The notes under the pieces: model-generated
Seen by the model: the letters and a program-made list of their open reading frames with translations, nothing else
The model's database searches: none
What the model was told of the DNA's origin: nothing
Origin: Escherichia phage YDC107_2
Strand: one strand, 5' to 3'
Sequence record: CP025713.1
Length of the DNA stretch: 18,617 nt
In this document: positions 2,230 through 16,415 of the stretch, one piece after another
Numbering within the stretch: the first letter of the stretch is position 1
Layout of the letters: each line of letters starts with the position of its first letter
Made by a program: the position numbers and the translations under genes

Positions 2230-2238
2230 CATGTCACA

Positions 2239-2262
2239 GGCCGCTTTCGCGGCCTTTTCTTT
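2239..2262 (+). terminator. rho-independent terminator after the membrane protein gene
   Basis: GGCCGC (2239-2244), loop TTTC, GCGGCC (2249-2254), followed by TTTTCTTT (2255-2262). Confidence 0.5.
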
Positions 2263-2361
2263 ATGTGGTTTGTTTTCGTAATTGTTCGGCACAATAGTCG
2301 AGATGTGTTTGCAGATCCTGCATAGACATCTGTGAGCTGGTGACGTAGTTAATCAGTGCAG

Positions 2362-2517
2362 TCAGTTCGGCAAGTGGCCATCGACATTAAATCCATCCTT
2401 ATCGAGATCCCGGAGTAATTTCATCAAGTGCGATCCCTCCACCAGTGACCTGACGCCTCCCGGCGTGTGAATCCTTTCGGTAAATCCGTCTTCCAGTGGA
2501 TAGTGATACTGCTGCAT
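2362..2517 (-). CDS. small ORF (51 aa as written, possibly about 86 aa if a +1 shift at the stop is an indel) divergent from the tailspike and preceded by a LexA box; candidate SOS-induced antirepressor-like or moron gene
   Basis: Hand translation of the minus strand: ATG at 2517, MQQYHYPLEDGFTERIHTPGGVRSLVEGSHLMKLLRDLDKDGFNVDGHLPN, stop 2364-2362. GGAG lies about 9 nt upstream. Below the 60-aa cutoff of the ORF track. The +1 frame continues ELTALINYVTSSQMSMQDLQTHLDYCAEQLRKQTT down to about 2260. Confidence 0.4.
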   Translation of the reverse strand: MQQYHYPLEDGFTERIHTPGGVRSLVEGSHLMKLLRDLDKDGFNVDGHLPN

Positions 2518-2536
2518 CTTATCTTCTCCATGCAAT

Positions 2537-2556
2537 AACTGTATATTTATACAGTA
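2537..2556. promoter_or_regulatory. LexA (SOS) box overlapping the putative promoter of the minus-strand small ORF
   Basis: AACTGTATATTTATACAGTA matches the E. coli LexA consensus TACTGTATATATATACAGTA at 18 of 20 positions, with a perfect CTGT-N8-ACAG core at 2539-2554. It sits 20 bp upstream of the ATG at 2517, between a TTGATA -35-like and a TATTGC -10-like hexamer on the minus strand. Confidence 0.6.
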
Positions 2557-2592
2557 TCAAATAATTTGTTTGCTATCCAGCACGTTTTGCAA

Positions 2593-2710: not shown

Positions 2711-5685
2711 ATGACGGTCTCAACCGAAGTTGACCACAACGAATACACAGGTAACGGCGTTACGACATCATTTCCGTATACCTTTAGGGTTTTCAAGGAA
2801 TCTGATCTGGCAGTACAGGTGGTTGACCTTGACGAAAAATATCGCTGTGCTGGCTCTTGATACTGATTACACTGTCACTGGGGCTGGTGGATATAATGGC
2901 GGTAATGTAATTCTGTCGAAGGCGTTAGCTAACGGTTATCAGATTTCTATATCACGAGAGCTACCGGTTACGCAGGAAACTGATCTGCGAAATCAGGGAA
3001 AGTTTTTCGCTGAGGTGCATGAAGACGCGTTAGATAAGCTGACGATGCTGATACAGCAAGTCCGCAGTTGGTTTAGCCTGGCGCTGCGCAAACCATCATT
3101 TGTGGCAAACTATTACGATGCTTTGAATAATTACATCCGCAATTTGCGCGATCCTTCCAAGCCTCAAGATGCAGCTACAAAGAATTATGTTGATAATATT
3201 GTTAATGTGAATATTAACAGGACATTACGGGTTCCAGATAATTTTATTGAACCACTTCCTCCAGTTCATTTACTGGAAGAAACTGTCATTGGTATCGTCA
3301 ATGGTAAACCTATAGGTGTACCTGTGCCTTCTGGCAGTGCCGCAGATGTTCTTCTGCAATTATCTAGCGCAGGAGAAGGAAAAGGTGATGCATTATTTGG
3401 TGTAAGGCAGCCATTTGCCGGGCTGTAACTATAACTCAGCATGAAAACAATGCTCTTTTCTTAAATGTAAAACAATTCGGAGCAATTGGGGATGGGAAAT
3501 ATCATCCATTATCTGAGAGGTTTTCTTCAATTTCTGAAGCAAAATCCTTATATCCTTTTGTTGACTCATTATCTCAGTCAATAGACTGGGCCGCGTGGCA
3601 AGCTGCCCTTAACACAGGAAAGGTTATTTATGGTACTGATAATGCGTATGTAATAACGGATACGTTAACACCTGTTTCTGGTGGTGGGATAATTTGTCTT
3701 GGTGTGGGCAAATGGGTCTCAGGATATACTGCAACATTTGCTCCTGATATTACCACAGGGACCACATTCCTGATGTACGGGGTAGGAAATAAAAAATATA
3801 CTGTAGATTGTGTTTCTAATATGGATGTTAGTGGTGGTGTGGTTTCTAATCCATCTTCCGAAGACCCGTATACAACAACGGCACCTGCGTCATCATATGA
3901 TTTATTGGATTTTACTAACGGTGATGCTAATGGGGCTACAAGAGCCACGCTTAAACCATTCTCTGCCGCAATATTGATGCCAGAGACAGGATGTGTTCGC
4001 CTTGAGAACTTTCGTATTGTTCCATATTTCAATGGGCTGGATGGTTATAAAGACATTGCAAATACCGGTCTTGGCGATGAGTGGGATGTAGGTATTTGGT
4101 CACGTGCGTCTTTGGCAATGAATACCGCAATTTGCAGGTGGTTGGATACTGGCGCAAGACGGCACTTTTAAAAACGAACATTCCTGTATCTGGCACGCTG
4201 GCCGCTCAGGGCGAGGATGAAAACTATTATCACTGTAGATTCCAGGGATTCAAGGGTGTTTCGATCCGCGCCCATGATGTATTCCGAATTACAGCGGTAA
4301 CGTCCAGCACTATCGAAATCCCATGGTCATCAAGCCACACCTTCGAAACGTCCGGGGTTTTAAGATCGGGAGGCAGGAATTTCACTTATTCAGGATTATC
4401 CGTATCCGGTGATAAGTTAGTATTTACTGGAGTGTCTAACGCTTCTGAGGCAACAGTAGGTTCTACTATACGGCGAAATGACATAGATAACTTTGGTATG
4501 GCGGGAACGCAATTTTTCGATTGCTACATTACCAGCCTGTATCACCACACACATCTGCTTGCCACATCGCAATACCTGTCTCAGCCATTCAGCCGGCCAT
4601 CAGAGTGTATGGAGGTTTCAGGGGAACCAGTTCGCGGTGTACAGGTACATGCAGGAACCATTCAGGGATGGGATGATGTTCTTATTCATCTACATGACTG
4701 TGGAAATATGAACTTTTACAGTACATATTTCGAAAGCCAGCAAGCATATGTAACTATAAATGGTGGTAATGCTATTGGTTATGGAGCACGTATGATAGCT
4801 TCCAGGCAATCAACAAGCTCATTACCATATGCAGCAGGGAATACTCGAGTGCTTAGAATGGTCGGGTGCTCTGAAGGCAATGGCGTTGACTGGGGTCCTG
4901 TATTTAACAACTATACAGGAGGAAGATATAATTCTGGAGACGGTGTATTTAACCCCCGCGATGCATTTATAGACCATAAATCTCTTCCTGAGCAGTCAGG
5001 AGGTGAGTCAAGACTCGTATCACAAAAAGGAAATGCCAGAGTAGTATGTGGTGTTGGTAAAACTGTACTGCTTGGACCAACGTCAGGAGATTGTAATTTA
5101 CAGAGCAATACCGGAAGTTTAAATATTAGAAGTGGGATAAGAGTAAGAATCGGTCACGCTGATGGAACAGACTGGTGGTTGGCAGATGCTAATAAAATAG
5201 CTCCTGTTGATGATAATGTTAAAGCTATTGGACAGCCATCAAACAGATGCTCTGTTATCTATGCAGGAACCGGGTCAATCAATACGTCAGATGAAACTCT
5301 TAAAACAAGATATGATATTCTTAATGCAGAGCGTAATGCCGCTATTGAAATAAAGTCAGTCATCTATAAATTTAAATTTAATGACTCAATTAATCACAAA
5401 GGAATTGAGTCGTCCAGGTATCATTTTGGCGTTGGCGCTCAAACCGTAGGGGATATTCTTAGAAAGCATGGTTTAAACCCGGAGCAATATGCTTTTTGGT
5501 GTTACGATGAATGGCCTGACGTATGGGATGAAGAGGTGATAACTGAAGAGAGCACAGATCCTGATACAGGTGAGAAAATTTATTCTCAATATAAAACAGG
5601 AGATATGATTCTTGTAAAAAAAGCAGGAGGACGCTACGGAATTCGTTATGACGAATTAGCCATGTTTATATTAATGTCAATGTAA
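2711..5685 (+). CDS. tailspike / tail fibre protein: conserved N-terminal particle-binding domain, central pectate-lyase-like beta-helix, C-terminal intramolecular chaperone (S74-like) domain; split by three frameshifts
   Basis: ATG 2711 with GGAG at 2700-2703. The N-terminus MTVSTEVDHNEYTGNGVTTSFPYTFRVFKESDLAVQVVDLDE matches from memory the N-terminal domain shared by podovirus tailspikes. Segments are frame 2 (2711-2860), frame 0 (2730..3428), frame 2 (about 3389..4171, containing NALFLNVKQFGAIGDGKYHP, pectate-lyase-like) and frame 1 (4081..5685). The C-terminus …NTSDETLKTRYDILNAERNAAIE… resembles auto-cleaving chaperone domains of endosialidase-type tailspikes. The first shift is one extra A in the A-run at 2835-2839. 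Confidence 0.7.
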
Positions 5686-6068: not shown

Positions 6069-6495
6069 ATGCATATAAACGGTGGAAAACATGTCAGCTC
6101 AACTAACCAGTGAAACTTTAAATCAGTGGCTTAGCATGAGTTCTTTGGCGGCAGTGATAGCAGGAGTTCCTCCTGAGGTTGCTTTGGGGTCTTTGGCTGG
6201 GGCGGTGATTTTTGTTACCTCTGCGGTAGAGTATCCCATTCGTCGTCGCGTGCTCTTGTCGATGCTTAGCTTTCTCTGCGGACTTCTATTCTACAAACCA
6301 GCAGCATCAATTCTTATCGGCATAGCCAGCCTGATCCCTACAATCACACAGGATTCTTTCGAGAAAGGGATTGTTTTCTCTGCCGGTGCATTTGTGTCAG
6401 CAATCGTCGCTGTGCGAATTGGGATCTGGCTCTATCACCGTTCCGATAATCCACGCGAGTTAATTCCGGGGAGAAAAGACGATGGTAACTCATGA
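6069..6495 (+). CDS. holin-like membrane protein; start ambiguous between ATG 6069 (strong RBS, out of frame) and GTG 6082 / ATG 6091
   Basis: Track ORF 6082..6495 (137 aa) has several hydrophobic helices. AGGAGG at 6058-6063 is ideally spaced for ATG 6069, which is in another frame and gives only 14 aa; an indel in GGAAAACA (6085-6092) would fuse them into an M…M dual-start pattern typical of holin/antiholin pairs. Confidence 0.5.
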
Positions 6496-7888: not shown

Positions 7889-8061
7889 CATGGCATTTTT
7901 CATGGTACTGATTTCCGGTGACGGTATATAAAACGGTACGGTGAAAATCATGTTGCAGGAAGTTGTTATCAGTCAATTAGTTATGGTATCCGTAAATAAT
8001 TGAGTGGGAATGATTAACAGCTAACTCATAGCAAATCATTCCTATTCAGATGCCAACTCAA

Positions 8062-8147: not shown

Positions 8148-8164
8148 ATTACCTTAAAGGTATA
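8148..8164. promoter_or_regulatory. operator-like palindrome, site B (ATTACCTTAAAGGTATA)
   Basis: TTACCT-N3-AGGTAT, one mismatch to the motif; about 42 bp upstream of the int start and flanked by the TGACGGTAT repeats. Confidence 0.45.
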
Positions 8165-11000: not shown

Positions 11001-11942
11001 TTACATAGATGTTTCGTTTAATTCTTCCCGACGAACGCTGTAAACGTCGGTGGCTTTTGCCAGCAGTTCGTCATCATCTGAAAGTTTTTGTGCAATGTAT
11101 TTGTAAGCCTTATCCAGTTCGGAGACAGTGCTGTAATTCATCGCTGCGCTGGTAAAGGCCATCAGCATTTCTTCTGGATCACGGCTGTCCGATTTACGCG
11201 TTTGCTCATCAGGCTTTTTCGCTGGTTTAGCGTTGATCAGACTGTTCATTCCCGCAGCAGTGGTCGTTTGCGGAGTAATGTCTCGCTCAACGCGCGGTGC
11301 CGTTTCCTGTAATTCGTCTGGGGTGTAGACGCCCATGATTACGTCAGGACAGTGCAGGCGAGACCAGCGTTTTGTCGCAAGGTATGCGAGTTGTTGTTTC
11401 GGATCACTGGCCCAAAGTGTGGAGTTTCTTACCTGTGCTTGAGACAGCATTAACTCAAGCACTCGAGGTTGATCCTCGCCCTTCATGGTTGCCCATACGC
11501 GAACACCGCAGCCTTCTTCGTCTTTTAGAGTCCAGCCTGGTGCGATATATGGATTGCCGTTTTTGGATGTTTTCTCAACAAACTTACCGATCACGCGTTC
11601 CCACGGCCCGAACCACTCGTAGTTGATGCGATCTTTTGTTGGCGACATCGTTGAGATAACTGCGTTTACTAATTGGGCTTCATAACCTAGCGTGCCGTTC
11701 ACAACATGGGTTTTCTGAGCCACGGCAAACGGGTTCATTCCCCACTGCGCAGCCTGCATTGCCACGGCCATGCAATCAGCTGGTTTCCCGGCGAGGTGCG
11801 CCGGTACCGTTACGCGGCTTTGCGCCATTACCTCGGCGAATTTCATCAGTTGGTTCAAGCCGTCTGGGCTGAAAATAGTTGCAGCAGTTCCAGCGATTGC
11901 TGTGTCTACTGGTGCGTTGATGTTTGCGATGTCGTTGCTCAT
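11001..11942 (-). CDS. recT: RecT-family single-strand annealing recombinase
   Basis: About 313 aa. The ATG at 11942..11940 overlaps the exonuclease stop (ATGA). The RecT assignment rests on length and pairing with the adjacent exonuclease; the family call is from memory. Confidence 0.65.
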   Translation of the reverse strand: MSNDIANINAPVDTAIAGTAATIFSPDGLNQLMKFAEVMAQSRVTVPAHLAGKPADCMAVAMQAAQWGMNPFAVAQKTHVVNGTLGYEAQLVNAVISTMSPTKDRINYEWFGPWERVIGKFVEKTSKNGNPYIAPGWTLKDEEGCGVRVWATMKGEDQPRVLELMLSQAQVRNSTLWASDPKQQLAYLATKRWSRLHCPDVIMGVYTPDELQETAPRVERDITPQTTTAAGMNSLINAKPAKKPDEQTRKSDSRDPEEMLMAFTSAAMNYSTVSELDKAYKYIAQKLSDDDELLAKATDVYSVRREELNETSM

Positions 11943-12760
11943 ATGTACATATCCTGTTTGCGTGCCCACTCAGGGCGTTTAATGATTTCCACACCGCCCC
12001 ATTCATCATTGATGCGGCATTCGTGATAGGTATTCAGATCCCGGCGGAACAGAGCGTGCCCGGCATCGACATCCTGCGCATCCAGCTCGAACACGCGTAC
12101 CGGATACCGACCACAATCAATGCTTTCGCTCACGGCAAGAAAGAAAAAACCATGCGGCTGACCAGTAACCCTCATTGCGCCTTCGCGGTACATTGCGTCC
12201 TGCACGTGGTAGCGGAATTCCTCGATGTGGCGTGCAAAACGGTCCATATCTGCAACCTTTTTCACGTCGACGATCACGTTGTGCTCGTTCAGCCATTTGT
12301 CTGGACGAATTCGGCACAACTCCCCCGTCTCTTCATCGTTCCAGTACATTGATGCTTCGCAGTAACCAGGTGCTTCCAGCATCCAGCGTGCCGCCGGGTG
12401 AGCCATTGCGCTATCACGCATCAGCTCCAGTTTCCGCCACTGCTCGGCATCAAGTACCGTAATCCCCATATCCGCCACATCACGAAGAAATTCCTCTTCG
12501 TCAGCTTTACCTTGTTTCGTCCGACGATCGAATTTCGGTGAAACAATGAAGCGTTTGTCGAACTCTCCAGGCTCCAGAAGCAGACAGTGCAATGCGGTTC
12601 CCATATCCAGTGCAGACTTTTTCTCTTCGTCTTCTGGTGCTGCCTGAACCCATTTAAGAAGCGCCGGATTCTTGGCAACCATGTCCAGTTGCGACTTACT
12701 CACGCCGTCACCGGCGTGGTAGTCTTCGTTGCTGATGTCGAAATAAATTCCCGGTTTCAT
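11939..12760 (-). CDS. RecE-like PD-(D/E)XK 5'-3' exonuclease, partner of RecT
   Basis: 273-aa intact ORF beginning MKPGIYFDISNEDYHAGDGVSKSQLD…, with …RIRPDKWLNEHNVIVDVKKV… consistent with a PD-(D/E)XK nuclease core; translationally coupled to the flanking genes. Confidence 0.6.
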   Translation of the reverse strand: MKPGIYFDISNEDYHAGDGVSKSQLDMVAKNPALLKWVQAAPEDEEKKSALDMGTALHCLLLEPGEFDKRFIVSPKFDRRTKQGKADEEEFLRDVADMGITVLDAEQWRKLELMRDSAMAHPAARWMLEAPGYCEASMYWNDEETGELCRIRPDKWLNEHNVIVDVKKVADMDRFARHIEEFRYHVQDAMYREGAMRVTGQPHGFFFLAVSESIDCGRYPVRVFELDAQDVDAGHALFRRDLNTYHECRINDEWGGVEIIKRPEWARKQDMYI

Positions 12761-13228: not shown

Positions 13229-13245
13229 GTTACCGTTGAGGTAAT
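13229..13245. promoter_or_regulatory. operator-like palindrome, site C (GTTACCGTTGAGGTAAT) at the early-left promoter
   Basis: TTACCG-N3-AGGTAA, directly abutting the -10-like element; an extra TTACC half-site lies at 13217-13221. Confidence 0.5.
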
Positions 13246-13290: not shown

Positions 13291-13307
13291 ATTACCCGTT
13301 AGGTAAT
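13291..13307. promoter_or_regulatory. operator-like palindrome, site D (ATTACCCGTTAGGTAAT)
   Basis: TTACCC-N3-AGGTAA, between the repressor terminator and the -35 of the early-left promoter. Confidence 0.5.
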
Positions 13308-13362: not shown

Positions 13363-13948
13363 TTATTGTTTGTTTTTTTCGTTCTGGTTGATGACAAATT
13401 CAATGTAACTTTCGATCTTTGCTTTCTCGGTTTCGGGTAACAATGCGTAGCGCGAGCGATCATAGTTGATGGTCGCAGGGTCGTGCGGGTGAATCAGTAA
13501 TTCATAGCCGTGACGCCCGAATGCGGATGCAACATTCTCCAGGGTGGAAATGGAAACGCTGACCTCATTGTTTAACAGGCGGCTGATTGTCACCTGGGCG
13601 ACGCCGGATGCGCGGTGAAGTTTTCCCTGTGTTGAAAGGTCGCGGCTTTCGCTCATCCAGCGTTCCAGGTTGTGAGCCGCCAGCTGGCCAATGTCGCTTG
13701 GGCCGACAGGCTGAAAACCTTCCTGAGAAAGCGAGCGATCGATATCAAGCCAGTTACGGGGTTTATTGGCGGCAGCTTCAATTTTTCGCGCAACCTGATC
13801 GCCGATAACCTTCTTACCAAGAGCCCAGCGGTTTTACCAGATTTGCCTGAGTTCCAAGTTTTTCAGCCATCCGCGTCTGAACACCATTGAATTCACGGTC
13901 GATCAAGTCGTTGAGATTTTGCCTGCGGACGTCCTGGATACTTTTCAT
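13363..13948 (-). CDS. immunity repressor candidate: CI-like protein with two HTH-like regions and no recognisable LexA-like S24 cleavage domain; one frameshift
   Basis: Minus-strand ATG at 13948 gives MKSIQDVRRQNLNDLIDREFNGVQTRMAEKLGTQANLV… (HTH), which stops after the A-run near 13830; the next frame continues …GKKVIGDQVARKIEAAANKP… into track ORF 13363..13656 (second HTH-like …GKLHRASGVAQVTISRLLNN…). It is divergent from the Cro-like gene with operator palindromes on both sides. Confidence 0.6.
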
Positions 13949-14002: not shown

Positions 14003-14019
14003 ATTACCCAACAGGTAAA
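14003..14019. promoter_or_regulatory. operator-like palindrome, site E (ATTACCCAACAGGTAAA) in the repressor/cro intergenic region
   Basis: TTACCC-N3-AGGTAA; a degenerate copy GCACCTCATGGGTAAC follows at 14021-14036. Confidence 0.5.
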
Positions 14020-14387: not shown

Positions 14388-14404
14388 CGTACCTCAAAGG
14401 TAAT
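14388..14404. promoter_or_regulatory. operator-like palindrome, site G (CGTACCTCAAAGGTAAT)
   Basis: GTACCT-N3-AGGTAA, one mismatch; downstream of the cro terminator and upstream of the zinc-ribbon gene. Confidence 0.4.
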
Positions 14405-16335: not shown

Positions 16336-16352
16336 ATTACCTATCAGGTAAC
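16336..16352. promoter_or_regulatory. operator-like palindrome, site H (ATTACCTATCAGGTAAC)
   Basis: TTACCT-N3-AGGTAA, in the intergenic region after the P-like gene. Confidence 0.45.
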
Positions 16353-16398: not shown

Positions 16399-16415
16399 AT
16401 TACCTTAGAGGTAAA
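16399..16415. promoter_or_regulatory. operator-like palindrome, site I (ATTACCTTAGAGGTAAA), overlapping the RBS of the next gene
   Basis: TTACCT-N3-AGGTAA ending 3 nt before the ATG at 16418; the AGGT half doubles as the Shine-Dalgarno sequence. Confidence 0.45.

Follow-up and report, generated by a model that had tools for sequence, protein, structure and literature searches.

A short reading frame on the minus strand, lying just before the tailspike gene and preceded by what resembles a binding site for the host repressor LexA, raises the question whether a temperate phage of Escherichia coli takes its induction signal from the SOS response at this point and, if so, on which protein the product of the frame would act. 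The locus lies in a stretch of 18,617 nucleotides from Escherichia phage YDC107_2 (sequence record CP025713.1), which as a whole is called the window here. In an earlier note, made from the letters alone, the frame had been proposed to encode an SOS-triggered antirepressor.

Genome context and the reading frame of ant

By megablast, 74% of the window aligned to phiV10, with 95.7% identity, and, judged by this likeness, the phage is an epsilon15/phiV10-like podovirus of the genus Uetakevirus. The alignment to the integrated prophage of YDC107 stops exactly at 7999-8015, at the sequence reported as the attP core of phiV10, epsilon15 and ZX5, which integrate at the 3' end of guaA (PMC9782041), and the window then runs on into the integrase gene. 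Homology that ends at the attP core with the integrase next to it points to the free-phage (attP) arrangement. Between the small membrane-protein gene and ant, phiV10 carries an extra module consisting of p22 and the Bro-N protein p23; this module is absent from the window (about 1740-2261), where a different gene is found, coding for 98 amino acids. Across the window, neither the Rfam nor the tRNA scan gave a match. Further along, RecT-like (11001-11969) and RecE-like (11939-12760) genes on the minus strand form separate open reading frames as in epsilon15, whereas phiV10 has a single annotated RecE-RecT fusion; the two layouts differ by a single T within the T-run at about 11956, and either the fusion in phiV10 or the split in the window could be an indel artefact. 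The features that frame the locus are the following.

1933-2229: gene for a protein of 98 amino acids beside ant (phrog_3075)
2238-2255, plus strand: terminator, a GC-rich hairpin followed by a T-run, just past the ant stop codon (terminator scan)
2261-2517, minus strand: ant, gene for a predicted small antirepressor, 85 amino acids when intact and 51 as given (2362-2517)
2526-2529, minus strand: Shine-Dalgarno sequence GGAG, 8 nt upstream of the ant ATG (read from the sequence)
2711-5685 (end approximate), plus strand: tailspike or tail fibre gene, divergent from ant (tblastn with phiV10p25 and annotations of relatives)
7999-8015: attP core ATTGAGTGGGAATGATT, about 190 bp upstream of int

The frame begins with an ATG at 2517 and closes with a stop codon at 2362-2364, which gives 51 amino acids from the ATG, and it is present as first described, on the minus strand between a small upstream gene and the tailspike gene. 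This position is kept in the annotated regions of phiV10, 65FD, PAS61, SPC32H, epsilon15 and YDC107, and the GGAG upstream of the start codon is invariant in all nine phages that were aligned. The hairpin at 2238-2255 ends the rightward structural operon, and a matching stem-loop is annotated in epsilon15. For the neighbouring gene at 1933-2229, the one holin-like Pfam match was weak and under the cutoff.

Compared with all relatives, the window is one G short at about 2375, where the plus strand of the others has GGG (CCC in the direction of the gene), as located by alignment with phiV10, 65FD and PAS61 and by the list of indels relative to YDC107. Restoring this G yields a protein of 85 amino acids, MQQYHYPLEDGFTERIHTPGGVRSLVEGSHLMKLLRDLDKDGFNVDGPLAELTALINYVTSSQMSMQDLQTHLDYCAEQLRKQTT, close to the length of about 86 that had been foreseen in case the stop was due to an indel. 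This restored sequence agrees with the YDC107 prophage protein at all 85 positions, with phiV10p24 at 82 and with SPC32H Ant at 76 of them (89%), and the gene has 85-86 codons in phiV10 (p24), 65FD, PAS61, epsilon15 (gp19), SPC32H and YDC107.

The missing G does not stand by itself. Between window positions 1 and 8015 and the YDC107 prophage we counted 14 single-base indels and only one substitution, every indel adjoining a copy of the same base and most of them lying in runs of at least three; over the remainder of the window, comparison with phiV10 brings up differences of the same type. Relative to close relatives this amounts to about 1.7 single-base homopolymer indels per kb (sites include 585, 673, 1266, 1397, 2375, 2629, 2645, 2835, 3419, 4110, 5700, 13832 and 14547), a pattern typical of uncorrected long-read or flow-based sequencing. 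The genes frameshifted in this way comprise ant, rep, the tailspike gene (indels at 2835, 3419 and 4110), virion protein genes, the DnaT-like and P-like genes, p42 and p45, and in tblastn searches with the phiV10 proteins the split genes were 96-100% identical on either side of the breaks. Since 14 homopolymer indels stand against a single substitution, and since an attP-form phage with its essential genes all broken would be non-viable, the truncation of ant to 51 amino acids is almost certainly a homopolymer sequencing error. A programmed frameshift or a true pseudogene is unlikely given the genome-wide pattern of homopolymer indels.

If the frameshift were real after all, a truncated Ant of 51 amino acids would remain as a pseudogene or a neofunctionalised fragment, and the phage would be non-inducible or abnormally SOS-inducible. 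The window as given does encode 51 amino acids followed by a stop, and residues 4-32, which the truncated form keeps, have a counterpart at the C-terminal end of p23, the Bro-N protein of phiV10, and so may be an independent module. We nevertheless consider a real frameshift very unlikely: the deletion falls in a homopolymer and is but one among the indels of this 8-kb region, the tailspike, virion, rep and replication genes are broken likewise, which no viable attP-form phage could tolerate, and the gene is full-length in other sequences. In the 34 phage records that have an ant homolog, it spans at least 80% of the gene in every case, and the listed E. coli prophages carry it as well, their best genome matches measuring 524-526 bases against 521 in the window, that is 3-5 bases more. 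With homopolymer indels throughout, arguments from the length of open reading frames in this window are unreliable, and apparent truncations in error-rich assemblies are not to be taken as biology.

Identity of Ant and of its presumed target

The product of the frame had been described as showing no recognisable similarity. This description has to be given up, as the protein falls into a family already characterised, for which a structure has been solved. Pfam searches with the 51-aa protein, the phiV10 85-aa protein and the restored 85-aa protein returned nothing above cutoff (a DUF724 match with an E-value of about 0.004-0.005 was treated as noise), but other collections were informative. 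A phmmer search of the PDB with the phiV10 ortholog matched a single sequence, chain E of 5D50, 'Anti-repressor protein' (E = 2.9e-46), residues 3-84 aligning to residues 4-85, and among the PHROGs the protein fell into phrog_450 (E = 2.4e-47), a family to which no function is assigned; a weak, partial match over 49 residues linked it to phrog_1760, 'anti-repressor' (E = 7.6e-7). In 5D50, the Ant ortholog, 89% identical to the restored window protein, was crystallised in complex with the repressor. In the record of Salmonella phage SPC32H (KC911856) the ortholog SPC32H_020 is named 'ant: anti-repressor protein', and its product is 87.8% identical to phiV10p24. On the strength of these matches, the window gene is the E. 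coli-phage copy of the SPC32H-type Ant.

In current annotation the ortholog is labelled 'hypothetical protein' in phiV10 (p24), in the RefSeq entry of epsilon15 (gp19) and in all listed E. coli records; corresponding entries are WP_001188253.1 for YDC107 and MW722083, positions 2092-2346, for ZX5. The rep annotation of epsilon15 already cites 5D50_A, though its ant stays a 'hypothetical protein'. The locus was found in approximately 522 of 5,426 complete E. coli genomes, about 10%.

Such labels in E. coli records, together with a PHROG family lacking an assigned function, could be read in favour of another role: the LexA box would drive some other small SOS gene, for instance a DinI-like RecA modulator, a toxin or a division inhibitor, and induction would be brought about elsewhere, for example by a Bro-N protein. 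In phage ZX5, antirepressor activity has indeed been ascribed to the Bro-N protein ORF4, over-expression of which resulted in less lysogeny, and the small Ant ortholog goes unmentioned in that paper of 2022 (PMC9782041). The Bro-N 'antirepressors', phiV10 p23 and ZX5 ORF4, are larger proteins with a Bro-N domain, and p23 adjoins ant in phiV10. For the window phage we judge such another function highly improbable, given a protein 89% identical to one crystallised together with a repressor and the lack of a Pfam match to DinI or to any toxin family. Moreover, no Bro-N gene was found in the window, which leaves Ant as the sole antirepressor candidate within this stretch of the genome.

The two kinds of protein do share a segment. 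Residues 148-181 of phiV10 p23 (encoded at 2104-2688 of the phiV10 stretch) match the N-terminal 35 or so residues of the Ant family (phrog_450, E = 7e-8; BLASTP, 48% identity over 29 aa), and the first ~35 residues of Ant may constitute a portable Rep-binding module common to Ant and the C-terminus of p23.

The presumed target of Ant is encoded further downstream in the window.

13363-13948, minus strand: rep, immunity repressor, 194 amino acids when intact

In the window rep is split by a one-base insertion in a T-run at about 13832, and tblastn recovered it as two pieces, each 100% identical to phiV10p40. The latter protein gave a full-length match to chain A of 5D50, 'Repressor' (E = 4e-42), matched 5D4Z too, and is 42% identical to SPC32H Rep; by these matches the window Rep is an ortholog of SPC32H Rep (5D50_A). 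Pfam assigned to phiV10p40 an HTH_3 domain at residues 106-147 and, more weakly, an HTH-like stretch at 21-61. No Peptidase_S24 domain was found in it by the same search. The earlier view of a repressor with two HTH regions and lacking a LexA-like autocleavage domain is thereby borne out, and an S24 peptidase at the C-terminus, which would have spoken against the proposal, is absent at the level of Pfam. Because Rep is just 42% identical to its SPC32H counterpart, we infer by analogy, and do not take as given, that the Ant of the window phage binds its own Rep.

LexA box, candidate ant promoter and putative Rep operators

Three elements were placed in the DNA that separates ant from the tailspike gene.

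2537-2556: LexA (SOS) box, a palindromic operator, plus strand reading AACTGTATATTTATACAGTA, 20-39 nt upstream of the ant ATG
2551-2579, minus strand: candidate ant promoter, with -35 TGGATA (2579-2574), a 17-nt spacer and -10 TACTGT (2556-2551)
2593-2609: perfect palindrome ATTACCTGAAAGGTAAT, a putative Rep operator in the ant-tailspike spacer

The box agrees with the LexA consensus 20-mer TACTGTATATATATACAGTA at 18 of 20 positions and is the sole site in the whole window with three or fewer mismatches to that consensus. The motif CTGT-N8-ACAG likewise occurs once in the window, at this box, and none of 200 dinucleotide-preserving shuffles yielded a LexA-box match of that quality, so that the near-consensus box noticed at the outset holds up. 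Conservation was followed in an alignment of the ant-tailspike spacer from nine phages, namely the window phage, phiV10, SPC32H, SPC32N, epsilon15, Enterobacter phage BUCT554 and three Klebsiella phages. In all nine, with Escherichia, Salmonella, Enterobacter and Klebsiella as hosts, the box occupies identical alignment columns; its half-sites are kept and its central spacer is variable (on the ant strand ATAAATAT in the window versus ATGTTTAT in SPC32H), a pattern expected of a site under selection.

A natural variant bears on the function of the box. SPC32H and SPC32N differ at two positions within the aligned ant-tailspike spacer, one of the differences being a C to A change in the ACAG half-site of the LexA box (TATACAGT to TATAAAGT). 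In the account of Kim and Ryu (2013), the two phages are reportedly two nucleotides apart, and one of these changes is said to lie in a LexA site overlapping the ant promoter and to make Ant synthesis constitutive and growth lytic; the difference seen in the alignment agrees with this account.

Among the three Klebsiella relatives, the box (alignment columns about 178-197) carries ATG in place of CTG in its upstream half-site; next comes TATATATATA, or TATATACATA in ST512-KPC3phi13.3, and then CAG. An ATG half-site would make for a weaker LexA box, and SOS control of ant may therefore be looser in the Klebsiella lineage.

As to the promoter, a strict scan for consensus sigma-70 promoters over 2150-2750 called none at the LexA box. 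A looser scan across the alignment brought up the candidate listed above, which scores 7 out of 12 and is thus weak, yet is the sole -35/-10 pair conserved in position among the six Escherichia, Salmonella and Enterobacter sequences. The upstream half of the LexA box doubles as its -10 element TACTGT, and a -10 element inside a LexA box is a common layout among SOS promoters. The claim that the box overlaps the ant promoter can hence be upheld for a weak, conserved candidate with its -10 element in the box, whereas the strict scan lent it no support; we infer the exact promoter and its overlap with the box from these alignments.

Beside the candidate promoter lies the palindrome at 2593-2609, kept in nine of nine aligned phages and located 14 nt upstream of the candidate -35 element. 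It is one of a series: ATTACC-N5-GGTAAT, allowing at most two mismatches, occurs nine times in the window against 0.57 expected, at 2593-2609, 8148-8164, 13229-13245, 13291-13307, 14003-14019, 14388-14404, 16336-16352 and 16399-16415, with a weaker copy at 6434-6450. Copies are found between ant and the tailspike gene, on both sides of rep, and upstream of both int and the p45-like gene. Because the equivalent palindromes in the RefSeq entry of epsilon15 are annotated as protein_bind, 'repressor; lysogeny', the ATTACC-N5-GGTAAT palindromes are probably Rep operators, and the distance of only 14 nt between one of them and the ant -35 element suggests that the ant or the tailspike promoter answers to Rep as well.

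Proposed SOS input, known systems and wider relevance

With high confidence, we read the locus as an SOS-input module of an epsilon15/phiV10-like temperate E. coli podovirus, in which ant would be under direct LexA control and Ant would inactivate Rep. In the lysogen, host LexA would occupy 2537-2556, over the -10/start region of the ant promoter, and owing to this overlap ant would be silent. Rep, with two HTH domains and no autocleavage domain, would meanwhile shut the lytic promoters via its ATTACC-N5-GGTAAT operators. Upon DNA damage RecA would become active, LexA would cleave itself and ant would be transcribed; the 85-aa Ant would then bind Rep and dismantle the DNA-binding Rep tetramer, so that the lytic promoters fire and lytic growth sets in. 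The first half of this scheme, LexA occupancy and SOS derepression of ant, is supported by the sequence of the locus and its conservation, while binding of Ant to Rep and disassembly of the Rep tetramer are carried over from the 89%-identical SPC32H ortholog and would apply here by analogy.

For SPC32H the scheme has been described. PMC7380047, citing Kim & Ryu 2013, states that once LexA has cleaved itself the Ant protein is made and inhibits the repressor through protein-protein interaction, and according to PMC9638917 the Ant of SPC32H is a tetramer that engages a pair of Rep dimers, whereby the tetramer of Rep is broken up; a 2025 preprint also mentions the SPC32H antirepressor Ant. Phage ZX5 has the same Rep and an Ant 97.6% identical to phiV10p24, and from ant to the tailspike gene its DNA is 98.2% identical to that of the window. 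Its titre rose about 100-fold with mitomycin C, from 10^7 to 10^9 PFU/mL (PMC9782041), which, given the same Rep and a near-identical Ant, is consistent with an SOS input.

Among known systems, the Ant/Rep switch of SPC32H (Kim & Ryu 2013, J Virol 87:11775; Kim et al. 2016, PNAS 113:E2480; PDB 5D50, 5D4Z) is shared in its parts with the window phage: an orthologous Ant (76/85), an orthologous full-length Rep, the position of the LexA box relative to ant, the genus Uetakevirus, and a gene order and orientation with ant on the opposite strand between the virion/small membrane-protein gene and the tailspike gene. The window phage differs from it in its E. coli host, in a Rep at 42% identity and in the apparently artefactual frameshift in ant. 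Kim and Ryu, in 2013, reportedly observed that the SOS response leaves Rep of SPC32H uncleaved and that it is Ant that inactivates Rep. What the earlier note had proposed, a LexA-repressed small antirepressor acting on an uncleavable repressor, coincides with the mechanism reported for the SPC32H ortholog; the proposal was right yet not new, as Ant has been characterised and crystallised from SPC32H. The SOS-triggered Ant mechanism having been published in 2013 and the Rep-Ant structure in 2016, the finding is a rediscovery and adds little to the mechanism as such.

The logic, in which a LexA-repressed small protein inactivates an uncleavable repressor, is shared with 186 Tum and with the Gifsy/Fels-2 antirepressors (Shearwin 1998; Lemire 2011, PMC3121763), and the SOS box upstream of the gene in these systems is likewise present at the window ant. 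Judged by the Pfam, PHROG and PDB searches, however, there is no detectable sequence kinship between these antirepressors and Ant, and the phages that carry them are myo- and siphoviruses, whereas the window phage is a podovirus. Tum has a DinI-like C-terminal part. SPC32H Ant is said, again in the 2013 work of Kim and Ryu, to be structurally distinct from the antirepressors of 186 (Tum) and the Gifsy phages.

With the immI region of P22, the locus has in common that an antirepressor gene lies just upstream of the tailspike gene and that its product acts by binding the primary repressor. P22 Ant, in contrast, is a protein of about 300 aa with KilAC/ANT-type domains, and its regulators are Arc, Mnt and the sar RNA in place of LexA; the locus described here shows none of this. 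The P22 c2 repressor undergoes RecA-dependent cleavage, which is not expected of the window Rep. A P22-type immI, with a KilAC/Bro-N-type Ant under Arc and Mnt and LexA as an added layer, is hardly credible here, as nothing but its place beside the tailspike gene, where the virion gene block ends, speaks for it and it is refuted by the Uetakevirus genome, by the absence of arc- or mnt-like open reading frames at 2230-2710, where ant stands alone, and by an Ant of 85 amino acids with no ANT, KilAC or Bro-N domain at the Pfam cutoff. The description of the genome as P22-like with an immI position accordingly has to be withdrawn, a place next to the tailspike gene being all that resembles P22.

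Returning to the SOS-input module, its two proteins diverge unequally between the E. coli and the Salmonella lineages, Ant being 89% identical and Rep 42%. This asymmetry could mean that Ant acts across heteroimmune relatives and mediates crosstalk among prophages. The combined proposal that Ant is a trans-acting inducer across heteroimmune epsilon15-like prophages and that the ant or tailspike promoter is under dual control by LexA and Rep is tentative, and we hold it to be rather doubtful at present. If true, it would imply a Gifsy-style crosstalk among epsilon15-like prophages, in a species in which about one complete genome in ten carries the locus. Naming the gene ant and marking its LexA box in the annotation would, for its part, allow a better prediction of which prophages of this type, those of O157 and O26 among them, are induced by DNA-damaging antibiotics.
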